Origin: Rhizodiscina lignyota
Lineage: Eukaryota
Direction: 5' to 3'
DNA: 64,000 nucleotides
Assembly: GCA_010015805.1 (NCBI GenBank)
Contig: ML978123.1
Coordinates: forward strand, 2,666,001 to 2,730,000
Part shown: positions 23,690-36,339 of the stretch, in pieces
Layout of the letters: every line of letters begins with the position of its first letter
Position numbering within the stretch: position 1 is the first letter of the stretch
Position numbers and translations under genes: made by a program
Notes under the pieces: generated by a model
The model's input: the letters and a program-made list of their open reading frames with translations, nothing else
Database searches by the model: none
What the model was told of the DNA's origin: nothing

Positions 23690-24010
23690 AAGGCTCGTTC
23701 GTGCTCTGAGACTGACGAACAGCTCGAGGATCGTTCATGCTCTGAGACTGACGAAACAGCTCGAGGCTCGTTAGTACTCTGAAGCTGACGAAACGGCTCG
23801 AGGTTCGCGCCCTGTGACTAATGAAACGGCTCGAGGTTCGTGCCTTGAGGCCGACAAACAGCTCGAGGCTCATTAGTGCTCTGGGGCTGATGAAACGGCT
23901 CGAGGTTCGCGCTCCGAGACTAACGAAACGGCTCGAGGCTCGTTGGTACCCTGAGATTGACGAAACATCTCGAGGTTCGTCCGTACCTCTGGGCTCGTCC
24001 GTACCTTGGT
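23690..24010. repeat. Minisatellite of 32-37 bp units, each with a CTCGAG core
   Basis: CTCGAG at 23723, 23760, 23797, 23830, 23862, 23899, 23932 and 23969 within an approximate consensus GACTGACGAAACRGCTCGAGGYTCG(TTAG)TGCTCTGA. Confidence 0.92.
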
Positions 24011-27136: not shown

Positions 27137-28447
27137 ATGTCAGACTTCAGAATCTATACCTCCATCCTCTTCTCTCCAATCGAAAAGCAGTTCCTAAATG
27201 ACATCACGCTCTCTGTGTCTCCAAAGACTGGCCTGATCACGAAAGTCCATAAACGTAGCGCCGCTGAAACTAGCTCCTTAGATGGAGCGACTATCGCTTC
27301 GCCAGACATTGACCTGCGTTCCCCTGGGCCCAATGGCAAACCGCGGGTCATACTACCAGGACTCGTTGATGCGCATACACACATATTTCTGCATGCATAT
27401 TCGGACACACCATCTCTCAATCAAATGCGCGACGAATCTCCAACTGAACGTACTGTCCGCGCGGTGAACCACTGCCGCACAGCGCTACTTGCTGGGTATA
27501 CTACCTATCGCGACCTCGGAACAGAAGGAATGCTCGATCACGACATCCACATCCGCAACGCCATCAACCGTGGCATCATACCCGGTCCTCGACTCTTCGT
27601 GGCAACTGAATGCGTTGCCTCTTCGGGTGGTTATGCAGTACGTCTCGAGAATATCACAAACGGCGTCCCCCGTATCGCAGACGTCGGTGACGGAGTGGAT
27701 GGCGTAAGGGCTGCAGTGCGCCGTCGGGTTGGTGCCGGCGCAGACATTGTCAAGTTCTACGCAGACTATCGGAAACGACAGCTGAGGTATCCGCCTTCGA
27801 CATGGCCTGGTGAACCGGACATCCAGTTCCCACCAAAGAGTATAGACCGGAATCCGAACGTTCCACTCTTCAATCAAGAAGAGATGGACGCCATTGTGAG
27901 GGAGGCGAAGTTGAATAGCATTCCGGTTGCCGCTCATGCTCAAGCCGCCGAGGCAGTCATCATGGCAGCTAAGGCAGGTGTGACAAGTATTGAGCATGGC
28001 TTTGAGCCCAGTGGTGCCGCGCTGGCAGCTATGAAGGAGGCGGGATGCATTTTCGTCCCAACGCTGGCTGTGTTGGAGCTGTTTTTGCCGATGGAGGCAA
28101 TCCTCGCCCATACGCGGAAGGCGTGGGATATGGGGATTAAACTCGCGTGCGGAGGGGATACTGGTGCGTTCGACCATGGGCAGAATGCTAGGGAGATAGA
28201 ACTGTTCATCGAAGCAGGGATACCGTTAGAGGAAGTGCTCACTGCGTCAACACTGCACGGATGGGAGACTTGCGGAGGAGAGCTGTGCGGAAGGAAGTTT
28301 GGCTGCTTGGAAGAAGGATGGGCTGCCGATTTGGTTGCTTTAGAGGGAGATCCAAGGGAGGATACCGACAGCTTGAGAAGAGTAGAATTTGTAATGAAGG
28401 ACGGAAGGGTATGGAAGAAGGATGGGGTCGCCGTGGGAATTGCATAA
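27137..28447 (+). CDS. Metal-dependent amidohydrolase (Amidohydro_1; prolidase/imidazolonepropionase-like)
   Basis: LPGLVDAHTH metal motif, GYTTYRDLG, GADIVKFYA, VAAHA, SIEHG, GGDTG, G.LEEGWAADLVAL. Confidence 0.93.
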   Translation: MSDFRIYTSILFSPIEKQFLNDITLSVSPKTGLITKVHKRSAAETSSLDGATIASPDIDLRSPGPNGKPRVILPGLVDAHTHIFLHAYSDTPSLNQMRDESPTERTVRAVNHCRTALLAGYTTYRDLGTEGMLDHDIHIRNAINRGIIPGPRLFVATECVASSGGYAVRLENITNGVPRIADVGDGVDGVRAAVRRRVGAGADIVKFYADYRKRQLRYPPSTWPGEPDIQFPPKSIDRNPNVPLFNQEEMDAIVREAKLNSIPVAAHAQAAEAVIMAAKAGVTSIEHGFEPSGAALAAMKEAGCIFVPTLAVLELFLPMEAILAHTRKAWDMGIKLACGGDTGAFDHGQNAREIELFIEAGIPLEEVLTASTLHGWETCGGELCGRKFGCLEEGWAADLVALEGDPREDTDSLRRVEFVMKDGRVWKKDGVAVGIA

Positions 28448-29050
28448 TCTAAGAGGATCGGGACATAGAGCTGTGGACACGAATATAGCACTTGCACGGA
28501 GATTAAATGACGAACAAGTTGACAGTCATCGATGTTTGTTAGATATCGGACTGATATTTTCAGGCGCTTTTCTGACCATACATTCCAGAATGACATCTTA
28601 GAGCCATTTCTGTCTTCCTCCGTACGCCAATTCCAAAGGCAGCGTCGCCGCTCAGCTGGGCACTTCCGATATGCTATACATACCACTAAAGCGGGGATGC
28701 GCAACGGTTCTCGAATTTTGCTCCATTTGCCTCATGGTCCATATGTGCAGATGAATCCAATCGAACTGGAGCAAGCAGAGCGTCCAGACTCGAGTTCACT
28801 AATGCACTGCTTGGTAGCATCCCGGCTCTTCTACCCTCGTAAAATCAACTGATGTCCTCTCCCGGAGCGAAAGCTACAGCTATGCTGCAGATACGAGGAA
28901 CAATGAGACGACTCCGTGAACGAAGCGTACGCTGACAACTTCCAATGCATCGAGGAGAGTGACTTGATCCACTGGTCTCATCCGTGTCCATGGAGTGTAC
29001 TGCAGTGGGGAGTTGAGAGACAGACAAGTTACGTCCATCACGGTTCTTCG

Positions 29051-29610
29051 TCATCTGGATCCACCGGTACTTTCGACAACGCGATGGACGTCATCTTCAA
29101 TCCCTTCGATACCTGCGATCATCTGGCGAGCCAGAATATCGCGGAAGTTACCGAAGGCCTCGCTCTTTCCTTTGAGCTTTTGATTCAGTTCCATGACACG
29201 TTCCACGAATTGGCGAGTGTAGATGTCCGGATTACGGGCGTCTTGCACGTATTGAATGAGTTCAGGCGGCACTACAATTGGAAGAGACGGTGCTGTCCGT
29301 GAGAGAGCTGAGAGATTTTGAACCAAGTTTTTGCTTCAACGATGTCAGGACAATTACATTGCGACCGATTCCGAGAGTTGGTTGCGTTCACTCACATTTG
29401 CTCTCGCATGGCATTTTCCGTGGCCGCTCCTTTGTGGTCATGTGCCTGGACTATGAGATTGAATAGATTCTGCACGATACTCTTCATTTGATCTGAATAC
29501 GACGGGGATATTAGTAAGTCAGCTTCGCCCAGTAGTATGGAGGATGTACCATCGACACGCCTCAGAGTTTCTGGCGGACCGCCATCGAGTTGAGGCTGTT
29601 GTGGAGCCAT
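29051..29610 (-). CDS. MED10: Mediator subunit 10 (Nut2), 3 exons
   Basis: VPPELIQYVQDARNPDIYTRQFVE..NQKLKGK..AF..FRDIL is the Med10 signature. Two short introns. Confidence 0.93.
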
Positions 29611-29948
29611 GTTAACTGCGAACTAGCCTAGGACAAGGGACGATAGGAAGACGAATGAAAGGTTTGTACAGAAGGAAATAATGAAATAGTGCTGAACTAA
29701 TCAGTGAAATGAGCGAGTGTTCATGGCGGGCAATTACAGCAGGCAAGAGATGAGGTTGCGATAATTCAACGAAGAAGGCCCTTTTCTCGGCCCGAGCCGA
29801 AGGATGAGAGCGTTCGGCGCCCTTTTCCTTGGCATCAAACATGGCCAATGGTAGACGGCCGCGTTTGCTCTGCGTTGTTCCACCCACTACCCGACAGACA
29901 ACGGCCCAAATACATTCGACATTTAACCATGGGGAGCGCGAGCTTGCA

Positions 29949-32900
29949 ATGACACAGAATCCCTCGAAACCCTCGAGCAGTGTCGAAAGCCGTGTACGAT
30001 TTGCTCCTGGCTCTGGTGGAGGGGGAGAGTCAGGGTTACCTCCAGCAAAAGTGAAGCGAGGCGAACAAACCACCAACGACAAGGCGACCGCTGCATTCGT
30101 GAGGCGAACACTATGCGCGCATCAAATCCAGGGAGCAGGAGACAAGGGACGCAATACACCAAAGCCAATTGAGGAGCTTCTGCCGCCGCTCACCAGTTCG
30201 AACGAGATTGACTTGGAACTCTACGCTTTTATCGCGATCGTCATCAAGGACTACGTCTACACCTGGTATGCGAAATTCACGCCTGACCATGTCTTCACCG
30301 ATGAGGTGATTCAAATCATTGCGCATTGCACAAGAGCATTGGAACAAAGGCTACGCAAGGTGGATCTAGAGGCACTACTCCTCGACGAGATTCCCAGACT
30401 GGTCGACGATCACATAACTGGTAAGACAGATATGCGGCCCATTGACACAGAAATTGTCTCTGATAATTGCTATTGCAGCATACCGGACAGCTTCCGAAAC
30501 CTCTCAGCAGTACCCGCTCGCCACGAACCCGCGGAAAGTCTACCATACGCTCCAGCCACATCCCGCGCTCTCGCCGGTTCCGGATGTCTCAGAACCCGCT
30601 TCAGTCGAGAGGCAGCAGGAAAACGAGGCTACATGGCGCCAGCTGCTAGTTCAGGGCATGTTGGCCGTGCTGCTGCCGACGGAAGATTTGGAGAATAGCT
30701 GTCTCCGAGCGCTAGTGACCGAGATTTTCTCCGAGTTGATACTGGGCAATGGCATATGCGGCCGGACGTGCGAGAATTGGCTGCTCTGGGAGGCAGTTGG
30801 GAAGATCGTCGAGACGTTGGAAGCTCTGAGAGGGTCCCGAGGAAGGACCCGCTCCGTCGACCGGCAAAGCAAGGAAGGACCGAGCCGTCTGGAGCAGTTT
30901 GGGCTGTTATCGACAAAGGAGGAGCTCCTGAAACCTGTCAAGTCAAGCAGCAAAGGCGGGAATTCAACACTCTCCATCTCGGCAGCGTTCTGGATGGCCG
31001 TCCAATACGCATTTTTGGCGTTTACTGCGATGCGCGCAATGCTCGTCATGCTCGTGTCTGCGTCATCTCTGCCGTCGAGGAGCAGCACCAGCAACGCCCA
31101 CTCGTCAGATGCTGACGGGCCAGCATCGCCGCATCGGGAAGACGGTGCAGAATCCAATAACGACCGGGAAAGGCGGCCTATTGTTAGCATGGATATCTGG
31201 ACTTGCATCTCGCATCTGGTCGAGCTGGAGCAGCGCATGCCCTGGCTCTCTGGCTTTCTGGCTCTATTGCACTGGGGTGCAGTGCGTGGCATGGGCAAGG
31301 TGGGCGACACGGACGGGGCATTGGACAGGTGAGTGTCTCTGGTGCGGTGTTCTTTTTTCGAATATTTTCCATCTGCGCGCTCTCGTTGGCCGCCTCCCAT
31401 TGCCGCCCCTTGCTGCGTCGCAGAGCGGGCCATGCTAGCCCCGCATGAGCTTTCAGTCACTTGACTTGGCTGGCTGCCACTCCATACCACCATACCTCTG
31501 CCCGCGCCCAACCATCCCCGTCGATAGGCGCATCCTGAGGGCCTCTATACTCGTTTCTTATCGTCCTGCATCGTGGCTGCGAAACGCTCTCATCTCGGCC
31601 CACGACGTTGCAGTTTGTCATCTGCAATTACGCTACCTCGCCGTCGACCCCGCCGGCCCCTGTCGCAGCCTCATCCAACAGCACAATGCGCAAGCCATGC
31701 GGGCGCCGAACTCCATAACCTCCGCTAAAGGCGCAATTTCTTCGCCGTGTCTCACAGTCGCGCTCTGTCACTGGCTGGATCCCGAGGAACCAACCGTTTT
31801 TCTCGCTTCTTCCCTTCCTTCCTTCCTCCCTCCCTCCCTTCCGTGTCGTCGCGGCCCGCTTTTGCAAGACTGATGCTAAAATGGCGCCAACTTGATATTG
31901 CGCTGTTTTCGCGTCGTCGACCTGCCAAAGCCGTCGTCTACGCGCCGAAGTATGATCGGCATAAAAGCCTGCACTAGAACGTGCTGCGGTGCCGCCCGCT
32001 CGGGAACGAGGGCGGTCCCGTTAGGTCCCATACAATCTTCAACGACCTTTCGCATGTGTGGCCTGAGCTTCCTGGACTGCGTATTGCTTAGCATCGCAAG
32101 ACAGCGTGACACGGCTGGATCTCCACTGCGCCTCCGCAGGCATCTCGCCCGCCTTGCGCAGCTCCCTGTCTCTGGAGAGACCCTGGCAGTAAAACTCTAG
32201 AATTCGACATCGAAATTTTCAGTGGTCTTGTTCAAGGCCTTTGATGCGGAATTCCGGACGATGAAGCCGAAAGAGATCGTGCCCAACCTGCGTTGGGCAC
32301 AACCATGCAGCGCGCGCGGCCACTCTGGTGATCTGCACCACAGCGACGCTTCGAGGCGGCCCCTTCACAGGCATGTGCCGTTTGTTCTTGCTCCTTCGGA
32401 TCAATGGCTTGGCATGGAATTCGCATTTCCATGCTTCAACTCCTCATTCTCGGGTTCCACTGCGAAACTCAACTGCTGGAATTGTCAGGATCCAGACGAC
32501 CCCGGAGACTTTAGCTTTGCTAGCTGCCACCCCTCGTCCGCAAGGCTCCGTGTAGTCTGAGCAACCATCCACCATGGCACTAACTTGGACGCGAATTATG
32601 ACCTGCTGCCCATAATGCATTCGCATCTCTAAATCTAATCTCCCTCTATGCCTTCGCTCTCGTCTTCCCTGGCTTACGACCCCAGCATTATTCCTAGCCC
32701 TACCAATCTTACTCACTTCCGAATCTGATCGTTCCTGCATACTGCAAAACACTCGCTTACCACAGGCTCTCTCCAACCACTCTTTCCGTCTGCTCTACCT
32801 TAGCGACCTTCTCTGCTTCCTTTCTCGATTCCCAGCATCCCTACACATTGCCCGCTTCCCCGATTCGCGATGCAACTAGCATAACTAAGTTATCTTCCTG

Positions 32901-33308
32901 ACTCACTTCTCCTCCAGGATACTCGCCAACCAAGTCCACACGAAAATGCTCGATCCCGCGACCCTCCCCACGCTGCTGCGCATCGCGCGCACGTCCATCT
33001 TCCCCAATAACTCGCTAGCGCCACCACGTGCACTTCCAGACCCGGAGCAGGCGTTGCAGATTCGGAAACAGGCCGCAGAGGCCGTAGTCGGTGCGCTGCC
33101 TGATACAGTCGTAAAAGTGTATTTCGCGACCGCGGAGAAGGAGAATGCGGTATGTCAGGTCGAGGAGTGGCTTGACGTGGTAAGTGACGCGTATCTGAAC
33201 CGACATTTGGTGATCCGCATTGTCGAGCTGGTTATTGTGAGACTGGTGCCAGAAATGGCTGAGAGAGGAGTGAGCGAGCTCCTTGAGGAGAGGCTGGGGA
33301 GTCTTTGA
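29949..33308 (+). CDS. PXA-domain protein with Nexin_C-like C-terminus; introns 30421-30478 and 31329-32917
   Basis: LPPLTSSNEIDLELYAFIAIVIKDYVYTWYAKFTPD, HPAL, LLPTEDLEN. The last exon (LLRIARTSIFP..AYLNRHLV..IVELVIVRLVPEM) joins in frame as GALDR|ILANQ. An alternative in-frame ATG lies at 29841. Confidence 0.88.
31860..32560 (+). ncRNA. Candidate structured intronic RNA (unassigned; strand assumed from host gene)
   Basis: Dense hairpins: perfect 9-bp GTGCCCAAC/GTTGGGCAC (32279-32300), GGAA-tetraloop stem (31991-32016), GCATGGAA/TTCCATGC (32412-32434), long-range GATGCTAA/TTAGCATC (31872/32088). Confidence 0.4.
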
Positions 33309-34487
33309 AAAATCCCATCTGTTGTACATAGGTAGTTAAGATCACAAGCAAGCAGCTTAATAGATAGCTTCTCTGCAAAGAGTAATAGAAATGCCATATT
33401 CACATTCAGCCCATCGGCTCTCAACTCAACTAACCACCTGTCGTGGCTGCTCGGTTCTTGCAAAAGGCGCAAGGACAATCCAAAACTCTGCAGAAAGCCA
33501 ATCTCGCTACAAAAGAAAGAACGAAGAGGAACCCAATTTCCCAACCAACTCAAACGCCCGCTTGCCCACGCAACGTGCGCAGAGAGATCCAGTGTGAGAC
33601 CACACTCACACCCATGAGGGCTCGGATCGAAAGGAAGAGTGATATCAAAGGGGGCCCGCGCGAGCGGTGACAGCCAATCTTTTTTAGTTCGCACCTGTCC
33701 TGGCCATGTACCCCGATTTCCCAATGTCCCTGGAGTTCGAAGAAAGAGGTTCGCGCGCTTTCAGATATCGCACCAAATCGCCACTGAGGGAATACAGAGG
33801 AAGAACTAGAAGCAGTGAAAAGATAAGCAGAAGTACAAGACAGCTCAGAAGCAGAAGAAAGGAAAGGAAACAATGGAAATATTGACATGAATCCGGTCAG
33901 ACTTTAAGGATACGTCGTTTCATGCCCCCCGATGAGGCCAAGTTGTACGCCCTTATTGCCGCCCGTGGTCCCTCCCAGTGTCCGCCGTACCCTTCCCAGC
34001 CAACCTGAAAATGAGTGCAATGAAAACGCCTCGCTGGCTGTGGAAAGACCCAAAGTCCCTGTGTGACCAGATCCTAGTGTCCAATGGTGAGAGATAAGAG
34101 TGATGAGTGAATTCTGCTCCAAGAGGCAGCAGTCGTAGTAGTTTGCCCGTTCCAAACTCCGCGCTTCCGTTCGAGAGAGATGAGCTTCGGCCGTTACGGT
34201 TTGATACAAGGGGTATGAGGTGGTAGTCCTCTGCTCGCGCTGTGTCCGTTATTGCTTTATCCGCAAATATGCGTGTGACAAGCCCGGAGCTGCAGTAATG
34301 GCAGCTGTCGCAAGATATGAACAAGTGGTAAATGCCGAAAATGATGATGTCGATGGTGTCGTCGCTGCGTCCCCTAGAAATGAGTCGCGTCGTGATGAGA
34401 TGATAGACCGTTCGCTTTTGTACAAGGTGGTGTCCTGCATTCACAATCCAATGGACGGTGCTCCCCAGCTAATCCTATGAATTAGCT

Positions 34488-36339
34488 TTACATGCCGCTC
34501 TCCGGAATACTAGCTAGGCCTCCCGGCATGTCTCCTGTGTTCGACCGCGACAGAGAAGGGCGGACAAGGCCGAGGCCCTGGGGCTGCACACCGTGATCCA
34601 CCGAGCTGTGGCGAGAGTGTAGCTTCAGCTTCTCCATCAGCTTTCCCATAGTCATGTACTCCTGCGGCTCAACAATGCCACTTGGCTGTTGCGCGAAGAA
34701 GTTCATCACCAGCTCCAGGGCTCTTCTGGCATCCTCTTGAGTCGGAGATACTGGGGAAGACATGTTGCTAGAAGGTGTGATTGGCGAAGAGTGCGCTTGC
34801 GAAGTCAAGACATTGATAGGGAGAGATGAAGGCGCAATAGTCGATGGCAAAGGCGGAGTTGCCATAGCGCTGCTTCCAGGAGAAGTGAGAAGCGACGGTG
34901 CCACAGAGGTCGTTGTGGACGTGGGAGGCTCCATTCCATCAATGCTACCGATACCTCCAGGAATATCATTGAGAGGAGATTCCAGCGCTGCCGCCGAGAG
35001 ATACTTTGGCGTCAGACTGCCTGAAGAGGGCGGTGAAAAGGGCTCAATGCCAACCATGGGAAAGGTCTGGCTCCTGGGACGCTGGAATCCGCTACCGGAC
35101 CCATCGCGAGGCTGGATAGGAATAAACGGACTTGGGCCGGTAGCCGAATCAGGCGTGTAAAAAGGAGACGTTGGGCTTGTTGGGCCAGGAGAAAAGGAGC
35201 TTGACGTATGATCTCCGAAAACACTAGGCAGCGAAGGGTTGCTCGCGGAATGGAACGGACGGTGGCCATGCGTAAATTCAGCAAAAGCATCCTCAGCCTC
35301 CGACTTAATGCCTTCCTCCATCTTCGTCGCTGGCTCTGCTGGCGATGCAATACCACTGGGCGACGTCGGAGAAACACCGCTGGGCGTCTGCGCTCCTGAG
35401 GCGGGATTCGAAGTGCCCTCTGAGTCTCCTCCTAACGAGCTCTTGCGAGATTTTCCGCCCAGGATGTTGTTCTTCTGCTTGAATTTCTCCAGCCAGCTTG
35501 AGCTATTGGCCTTCTGGTGGCTCTCAGGGTTTCCCACGGATGTCGCGAAGAAGCGCGCCTTGTCCTTTATGGCCGCGTCCGTGATTGGTAGTCCTTGCTT
35601 GTGCTGGTTCCGGATCCAGTTCGTCAACGCCCGTTCAATGTCCGGAAACTTGCCCTTCTGCTTACGAGCCGGAGATCGACTGCCATCGTCCTGGTACAGA
35701 TACTTCTCTTTCTGGCGTAGGACCTTGGATACAGTGCTGGTCAAGCAAGTATGAGCAACAGAATAAACGGGCAGGAAATACCAAAGTCATACCTTCGTTC
35801 GACACCAAACATAGCTAGAGATAGTTAGTGTCAGTCGCAAAGCTAGGCAAAGACTCAGACATACCTCCAATCTCTGTCTGCTTCACGTTTGGGTGCTCCT
35901 CGGCATAAAGACACATCCGTCTCCTATCCAGGTCAGTCAACGTCTTTCGTGGCGTCGGCGTCTGCCTGGCGGATCCCGTCGAGGTCGCAGATACTGGTGT
36001 CGTGATGGGCGCCATCGGTACGGGAGCAGGCGGGTACATTGGAGGGACGTATGTAGACTGGCTTGTCAACATACTGGGCCACTGCGGCATGGTCATGGTT
36101 ACCAACGGCTGCAATTGCTGATGCGTCGTCCTGGGTGGCGGCATTCCTCCATGTCCATATGGCTCCATTGGCATTGGGGTGAAACTGAAGCCCGAGTGCT
36201 CGTATGCTGGAGACTGGTGCTGCGGAGTGTGGTACACATTGTGTTGATTTTCGTACCACTGGCCATTGCTGTCGTGATATCCACCGGCGCCGCCCTGATC
36301 TATATGATGCTGCTCATGCTCCATGCCCATCTGACTCAT
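34488..36339 (-). CDS. CENP-B-type helix-turn-helix DNA-binding protein (no DDE domain)
   Basis: RKTLTDLDRRRMCLYAEEHPNVKQTEIG|AMFGVER|STVSKVLR (22-nt micro-exon near 35800), then KGKFPDIERALTNW..ITDAAIKDKAR..SSWLEKFKQKNNI, then a Ser/Pro-rich tail. Confidence 0.9.

Follow-up and report, generated by a model that had tools for sequence, protein, structure and literature searches.

The closest described counterparts of the element reported here are intron 2 of dbp2 in Schizosaccharomyces pombe and the DBP2 intron of Saccharomyces cerevisiae, referred to as a 'decay-promoting intron' (PMC4695336). Our element is a 1,589-nucleotide (nt) intron in a gene for a PXA domain-containing protein, located in a 64,000-nt stretch of Rhizodiscina lignyota DNA (assembly GCA_010015805.1, contig ML978123.1, positions 2,666,001 to 2,730,000; hereafter the window, numbered from its first letter). 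Both the dbp2/DBP2 intron and the PXA intron have kept their position and their unusual length over great evolutionary distances. According to that source, unstructured intronic elements and inefficient splicing set the mRNA level of dbp2/DBP2, a mode of control that is here proposed for the PXA intron. The two systems differ in two respects: for dbp2/DBP2 the bound factor, Mmi1, and the U(U/C/G)AAAC motifs that it recognises have been identified (PMC4695336), whereas these hexamers are not enriched in the PXA introns; and dbp2/DBP2 codes for an RNA helicase with possible autoregulation, whereas the PXA host is a membrane-contact-site protein. Since the Mmi1 motif is not enriched, the likeness to dbp2 is one of mechanism and not of membership.

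Conserved intronic RNAs that control alternative splicing in Pezizomycotina include the thiamine pyrophosphate (TPP)-riboswitch introns of fungal NMT1 and THI4; these are structured aptamers represented in Rfam, whereas the PXA intron has neither an Rfam match nor such a structure. The YRA1 intron is a long yeast intron tuned by intron-internal elements. Long yeast introns with a 'zipper stem' and autoregulated ribosomal-protein introns such as that of RPL7B are likewise tuned in their splicing by internal elements, as described in a second report (PMC12311795); these introns rely on conserved RNA structure or on pairing of the 5' splice site with the branch point, and the PXA intron shows neither. 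An intronic H/ACA small nucleolar RNA in a Pezizomycotina 'vacuolar sorting protein' gene is, as here, a non-coding element kept in one intron across classes. That RNA is 177 nt long, with 20 covarying pairs and with H and ACA boxes (Gao et al. 2021, PMC8216456), whereas the PXA intron has no covariation in its alignable conserved part and no Rfam match.

No prior description of the PXA intron was found in the full-text literature, subscription journals and supplementary files lying outside the reach of the search. Introns of filamentous ascomycetes are typically short, and an intron of about 1 kb at one codon across several class-like lineages is a clear outlier, the more so as it contains a near-invariant block with neither coding capacity nor structure. 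The outlier length and the block suggest that selection acts on how long the intron is and on a short linear motif. What is new is the age of the intron and this block, termed block B, which spans classes.

The host gene is predicted to encode a PXA-domain protein with an N-terminal PXA domain and a Nexin_C/PXC-like C-terminus, a combination of PXA and PXC without PX that we take to be 'Nvj3-like'. A word-based search with exon 2 returned 270 longer proteins, nearly all named PXA domain-containing protein and mostly 550-600 amino acids (aa) long, the best of them 53% identical. The Nexin_C match on exon 3 scored 18.2 bits, under the curated Pfam cut-off of 22.3.

Splice signals, reading frame and homologous proteins together indicate that 31329..32917 is a genuine, single-unit U2-type intron of this PXA/PXC gene. 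It has a GT donor (AG/GTGAGT at 31329), a branch-point motif (CCTGAC at 32897-32902, 15 nt ahead of the acceptor), an AG acceptor (the CAG ending at 32917) and a restored frame, the split codon AG+G giving ..GALDR/ILANQ... Reading through the intron gives AGG and then TGA at 31330-31332, and the list of open reading frames (ORFs) ends at 31332, which bears out the stop that a preliminary description of the stretch, made from the sequence alone, had placed there upon retention. Ten homologues out of 120 listed were compared with the window by tblastn and matched three collinear blocks (29949-30422, 30472-31338 and 32916-33299), with the query residues running gapless across the 1,589-nt interval in 10 of 10. 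Because these residues are contiguous, the interval is an intron and hides no missing exon. In contigs of the sole public run with this DNA, which is probably the source of the assembly itself, 30400-33400 is covered without a break or mismatch, which excludes scaffolding as the origin of the intron.

Four complementary DNA (cDNA)-like contigs of relatives (L002, L022, L024 and L063) have the exons fused at exactly this codon. These contigs also lack intron 1 (gap of 2-6 nt), which marks them as spliced-transcript contigs. One of the fused contigs matches a protein of Alternaria alternata at 99% identity, and Alternaria-like genomic loci have introns of 987 and 1024 nt. The splice sites and length given in the preliminary description were thus confirmed by the sequence, the gapless homologues and the spliced contigs, and the last exon is joined to exon 2 in all four contigs, which speaks against its belonging to a separate transcript. 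The description also held the intron to be more than ten times longer than any other in the window, which holds for intron 1 of this gene (58 nt), the only one used for comparison.

Orthologous loci came from a scan of metagenomes in which exon 2, aligned with 25 homologues, served as the query; 509 stretches matched, of which 156 encode a relative and 80 were kept, with Eurotiomycete and Sordariomycete orthologues absent. Exons 2 and 3 were placed by tblastn, and 57 loci hold both. A gap of about 608-1365 nt lies at exactly the same codon in 52 of the 57, the exons are fused in four, and the gap is 49 nt in one. Short introns in orthologues, a possibility that the preliminary description had raised against itself, are thus decisively not the rule. 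When only genomic two-exon loci are counted, 52 of 53 keep about 600 nt or more, and the gap at intron 1 in genomic loci is 45-169 nt. The long introns of the orthologues have GTAAGT/GTGAGT donors and CTAAC/CTGAC branch motifs before AG, and several further loci extend 375-1138 nt beyond exon 2, short of exon 3.

By best match to named proteins, the only basis of the taxon labels, the loci resemble Pleosporales (Alternaria, Pyrenophora, Lentithecium and others), Aureobasidium, Venturia/Tothia, Leotiomycetes (Hyphodiscus, Oculimacula), Lecanoromycetes (Gyalolechia, Squamulea, Letrouitia) and Geoglossum. The intron has thus stayed at one codon, at about 0.6-1.6 kb, in fungi resembling at least four Pezizomycotina classes. 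Because orthologues have a long intron at the same codon, the intron is old and maintained, and the earlier view that it is real, exceptional and probably functional is supported. The long intron may also explain annotated orthologues that are short at the C-terminus, for example those of 499-553 aa. The loci with exactly placed intron ends, many of them near-duplicates, yield 33 distinct intron sequences besides that of the window, and the last 450-1000 nt of these introns are essentially unalignable between genera, the branch site excepted.

A distant orthologue (28% identity) at L073:6693-6741 has a 49-nt intron at the same codon, with a MED10 gene still adjacent. The long form is accordingly either derived, or was lost in the L073 lineage.

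Block B is the part of the intron that unites these loci. Of 40 blastn matches between the window intron and the loci, 39 fall on intron positions 105-146. A profile of block B matched 53 loci exactly once each, and the 64-kb window likewise once (31436-31495), all on the + strand, and a stricter composite pattern has a single occurrence in 49 of the 80 loci. The consensus is C(C/T)CGCAT-N4-TTTC(A/G)GTCA-NN-TGACTT, read in the window as CCGCATGAGCTTTCAGTCA-CT-TGACTT; all 33 distinct sequences share the TCA..TGA bases, with CT, GA or TC as the central dinucleotide. The block lies 60-208 nt past the donor (median 89, 40 distinct sequences), and about 27 near-invariant nt are kept between lineages whose exon-2 proteins are 36-57% identical to that of the window. 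A 'TAG' ahead of the block is frequent and not universal. The motif is a putative protein-binding site.

Between the donor and block B, a U/pyrimidine-rich tract spans about +10..+40, ahead of a ..GTTGG.. block. At +10..+30 the mean pyrimidine fraction of 22 introns is 0.65-0.80 and that of T is 0.40-0.44, versus 0.57 and 0.25 over whole introns. The ..GTTGG../..TTGG.. motif occurs at the equivalent place in most lineages and is weak in the window. E-box, GATA and Nam8-type U-tract are labels that presumably fit motifs of these introns.

Loci of the Pleosporales type have more conserved blocks, to about 560 nt, such as CTTATCGCG, CGCTTACGCGCCGGTTGATCTGCCC, GCTCGGGACTGGCCG, GCGCCTCA and the palindrome GCGATATCGC (for example in L005:3179-3830). 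None of these blocks, blocks C and D included, was detectable in the window by nhmmer. Blocks C and D are complementary on paper. Five metagenome contigs (of L003, L020, L074, L014 and L025) end in or just after the conserved blocks: the ends of three lie within block B and that of another within block C, and the fifth contig stops after block A. These contigs retain intron 1 and are therefore probably genomic; the breaks likely arose from assembly-graph branching at k-mers identical among co-occurring fungi, and they illustrate how conserved the intron blocks are.

The conserved parts were folded in several ways. RNAalifold on 15 loci gave -6.7 kcal/mol with 12 pairs, one of them compensatory, for the first ~300 nt, and -5.7 kcal/mol with 10 pairs, none compensatory, for the next ~350 nt; block B with its flanks in 35 diverse sequences gave 0 kcal/mol and no pair. 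A hairpin or three-way junction at block B, drawn by eye as a three-helix model, was rejected, since pairing was possible in 80.5% of cells against 80.4% in column shuffles and covariation was 0.129 against 0.128; at a position flanking the block the pairs were AU 16, GU 11, GC 3 and AC 3, with no correlated change. Long-range pairing of blocks C and D was also rejected: ribosum-scored RNAalifold over 640 nt of 15 Pleosporales-type loci gave almost solely invariant pairs, and the sequences are not extra stable. No consensus hairpin was found in the alignable 5' 640 nt, and the conserved 520 nt of 8 orthologous introns had folding z-scores of -1.47 to +1.55 against shuffles.

Selection on the transcript was assessed by motif counts, compared with shuffles, in 22 introns well diverged from one another, 22.7 kb in all once the true splice sites had been trimmed off. 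On the sense strand, donor-like GT[AG][ACT]G[TC] was counted 19 times, whereas shuffles have 38.8 +/- 5.6 and not one of 200 came down to 19; the antisense strand has 84. GTRAGT is absent against 3.3 expected. This depletion of cryptic donors indicates that the intron is kept clean for read-through transcription and removal as one unit. TGTA, too, is rarer than expected in the sense orientation, with 21 occurrences where 38.6 would be expected and no shuffle among 200 as low (antisense 50), possibly through selection against premature 3'-end formation or as a by-product of the avoidance of GT donors. Only about 45 nt are common across classes, yet the length does not fall below about 600 nt, L073 apart, which suggests that intron length itself is under selection.

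Taken together, these results lead us to favour, tentatively and with less than even confidence, a regulatory intron that acts at the RNA level, its splicing or retention being set by factors bound beside the 5' splice site. In fungi used to introns of about 60 nt, a kilobase intron would be a slow and inefficient substrate, and its removal would be controlled by an unstructured protein-binding module next to the 5' splice site that comprises the U-rich tract, the GTTGG block and block B. Removal would yield the full PXA-PXC protein, whereas retention would lead to the stop at TGA 31330-31332 and hence to a PXC-less protein or to transcript decay. The poorly conserved 3' two-thirds would act chiefly as length, with selection keeping cryptic donors out. 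This is the best reading of an intron that is genuine, is conserved in position and length, has an unstructured, non-coding module tied to its 5' end and is depleted of donors on the sense strand.

In broader terms, and just as tentatively, the intron may be a deeply conserved, length-dependent expression switch in which an element of ~27-36 nt recruits a putative factor or fires an intron-internal regulatory transcript. If so, whether as a switch or through an internal transcript, it would join a very small number of elements that are neither coding nor structural and yet are shared by several classes of filamentous fungi. A splicing or retention element at block B would offer a case of regulated expression of a lipid-contact-site protein and a model of long-intron recognition in intron-definition organisms, and a DNA element there would be an unusually old fungal cis-regulatory site.

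Several points weigh against control at the RNA level. The intron of this organism is known from genomic sequence alone, and its retention, efficiency and isoforms are predicted. Depletion of cryptic donors is expected of any long intron that must be spliced. Mmi1-type DSR (determinant of selective removal) hexamers, U(U/C/G)AAAC, number 8 on the sense strand of the 22 introns against 14.2 +/- 3.5 in shuffles, with none in the window intron, and no 5'-3' 'zipper' pairing of the intron ends was found (duplex energy, mean z -0.37 over 34 introns, -0.05 for the window). To our knowledge, the host protein has no RNA role that would hint at autoregulation. The palindromic core TCA-NN-TGA fits a dimeric DNA-binding protein at least equally well, a pattern suggested by the GA and TC centres being mutual reverse complements, and the GATA-like and palindromic motifs in Pleosporales-type blocks resemble what we take to be transcription-factor sites.

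These last points bring in the strongest alternative, in which block B and the lineage-specific blocks are putative transcription-factor sites of an intronic DNA control region, an enhancer or internal promoter serving the host gene or an unannotated sense or antisense transcript. Such a region is possible, if somewhat doubtful, and almost as likely as the RNA-level control that we rank first; with the same degree of doubt, the length may be due to the housing of about 1 kb of regulatory DNA with turnover of sites. The conservation is that of plain sequence, with neither covariation nor extra stability, and the core is a CANNTG-like palindrome with invariant half-sites and a centre found in both orientations. 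Pleosporales-type loci add further palindromic (GCGATATCGC) and CTTATC blocks. The region between the host gene and its head-to-head MED10 neighbour is short in the window, and the same gene order is found in 36 of the 80 loci, the short-intron locus L073 included, which leaves little upstream room for gene-specific elements. On the other hand, the universal part is tied to the first ~100-200 nt past the donor and continues from the conserved U-rich tract, the palindrome by itself shows no enrichment over the window (4 found, 2.2 expected), and an internal transcript would have no conserved Met or ORF, a stop lying 10 codons upstream of exon 3 in the window.

HomolD boxes drive the fission-yeast long non-coding RNAs (lncRNAs) nc-tgp1 and prt beside a gene (PMC5769750), and CAGTCAC in block B shares 7 of 8 bases with the HomolD box CAGTCACA. 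The resemblance favours DNA-level control as a lead only, drawn from a different subphylum; many orthologues instead have CGGTCAC, CGATCAC or CAGTCAT/G. Furthermore, HomolD belongs to fission yeasts, and other Ascomycota use other elements, as stated in a further report (PMC4138321).

An unstructured lncRNA, derived from the intron or nested in it, with a conserved promoter or 5' end at blocks A and B and a body free in sequence and kept in length, is unlikely. A conserved 5' module followed by a length-conserved, sequence-free remainder fits this explanation, as does the lack of coding signal in the intron. Nevertheless, the sense poly(A) signal AATAAA is not enriched in the 22 introns (2 against 1.7 expected), TGTA is depleted, an intron-internal sense RNA must end at the host gene's own 3' end, and such an RNA, too, is a prediction from genomic DNA. 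Slightly less probable again is the absence of function, by which an old long intron would persist by inertia and block B would be an accident of slow decay. Inertia agrees with the failure of the larger part of the intron, roughly its last 450-1000 nt, to align between genera, whereas the length kept in 52 of 53 genomic two-exon loci beside a neighbouring intron of less than 170 nt, the persistence of a near-invariant block of ~27 nt and the depletion of cryptic donors on the sense strand do not.

The preliminary description had called the intron highly structured and had proposed a structured non-coding RNA, a small-RNA precursor or a structure controlling splicing in a GC-rich core at about 31850-32550, an explanation that is now very improbable. 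Its stems are real: GATGCTAA 31872 / TTAGCATC 32088, the 9-bp stem at 32279-32300 and GCATGGAA/TTCCATGC are all present in minimum free energy (MFE) folds, and the z-scores are weakly negative, -1.7 to -1.9. The folding energy, however, equals that of shuffles. In 16 sliding windows of 200 nt on the + strand of the intron, z ranged from -2.01 to +1.35 and averaged about 0 (40 shuffles each); for the 224-nt domain that GATGCTAA/TTAGCATC closes, z was -1.74, a fold equalled or surpassed by 10 of 200 shuffles; and the 700-nt core gave -1.86 on the + strand and -1.60 on the - strand (20 shuffles each), none of which is significant. The similar values on both strands show that the folding effect is not strand-specific. 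The listed stems are the chance expectation for a sequence of 58% G+C.

The core also has no counterpart by blastn or nhmmer in the 80 orthologous loci, a set with no close relative and a best protein identity to this organism of 55-57%. MFE was no better than shuffles in the window intron and in 8 orthologous introns, and no covariation was found in the conserved parts of the orthologous introns, which have no consensus structure. Rfam gave 0 matches at E<=1 in window 29000-35000 and 0 at the gathering score in 10 of the 80 loci, and a tRNA scan gave 0. A telomerase RNA was rejected: taking TTAGGG as the telomere repeat of Pezizomycotina, there is no CCCTAA/TTAGGG in the window intron and no template common to the 34 introns. 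Nothing in these results points to a folded RNA gene in the intron. As the conserved part is the first ~150 nt and is plain sequence, the structured proposals are unsupported, and a regulatory intron is plausible on grounds other than structure.

A nested protein gene, decayed exons (such as lost RGS/PX exons of an SNX13-type ancestor, an idea suggested only by the resemblance of ~1 kb to a lost two-domain segment) or a degenerate transposon is hardly credible, since Pfam returned no match below E 0.26 for any of the 15 intron ORFs of >=56 aa, codon log-odds (trained on the flanking ORFs 27137-28447 and 34488-35786) are negative for intron ORFs and positive for 3 held-out real exons, tblastx gives nothing at 1e-3 between window and loci and nucleotide-level matches only, with frames and strands mixed, between loci, in L025 a stop interrupts the most promising frame across block B, and no repeats or inverted repeats involving the intron and no second copy of it occur in the 64-kb window, within which it is thus not the multi-copy repeat that had been considered.

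Three other identities were considered and rejected. A poison or alternative exon and recursive splicing would need sites that are missing, as the 34 introns have no internal GTRAGT and no YAG/GTRAGT site. Intronic polyadenylation is contradicted by the lack of poly(A)-ended contigs among 17 truncated loci and by the AATAAA and TGTA counts given above. A PXC-only protein from an internal start was dismissed because conservation does not extend to the first in-frame Met of exon 3. A scan for bacterial-type promoters and terminators gave 0 sites, and such a scan is not meaningful for a fungus.

The coordinates of the gene and of the elements in its long intron are collected in the table.

Table. 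Features of the PXA gene and its long intron, in window coordinates
Feature	Position	Strand	Basis and remarks
Exon 1, PXA gene	29949..30420	+	ATG at 29949, phase 1 end; tblastn of homologues; Pfam PXA E 3.9e-24
Intron 1	30421..30478	+	58 nt, GTAAGA..CAG, ordinary size; sequence
Exon 2, PXA gene	30479..31328	+	Closes with ..GALD and AG of a split R codon; Pfam PXA E 5.2e-20
Long intron, U2-type	31329..32917	+	1,589 nt, phase 2; splice signals, frame, homologue contiguity, orthologous loci
T/pyrimidine-rich tract past donor	31348..31375	+	Base composition of 22 representative introns
Block A (..CTCGTTGGCC..)	31380..31391	+	Weak match to orthologue block ..TGGTTGGC..; nhmmer E 1.2, alone not significant
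Block B (TAGCCCCGCATGAGCTTTCAGTCACTTGACTTGG)	31436..31471	+	Sole element conserved in all lineages; nhmmer E 1.9e-9; TCA-NN-TGA core 31457-31464
CCTT/CTCCCTTC microsatellite (CT-rich tract of the preliminary description)	31802..31842	+	Tandem Repeats Finder; no orthologue aligns
GC-rich 'structured core'	31846..32545	+	Lineage-specific filler; no excess structure, no detectable conservation
Branch-point-like CCTGAC, pyrimidine tract and CAG acceptor	32897..32917	+	Sequence; orthologues have CTAAC/CTGAC similarly spaced before AG
Exon 3, PXA gene, Nexin_C/PXC-like C-terminus	32918..33308 including stop	+	tblastn; Pfam Nexin_C E 0.0034

The MED10-like gene at 29051-29613 lies on the - strand, head to head with the PXA gene, and ~335 nt separate the two start codons. 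Two long intron-free ORFs flank the locus, one at 27137-28447 on the + strand (~436 aa) and the other at 34488-35786 on the - strand (~432 aa); the latter is Ser/Pro-rich, and its N-terminal part is basic. Elsewhere in the window, 23697-23979 holds an imperfect tandem array of ~37-nt units (..GTTCGTGCTCTGAGACTGACGAACAGCTCGAGGATC..), whose copies are 62-89% identical.

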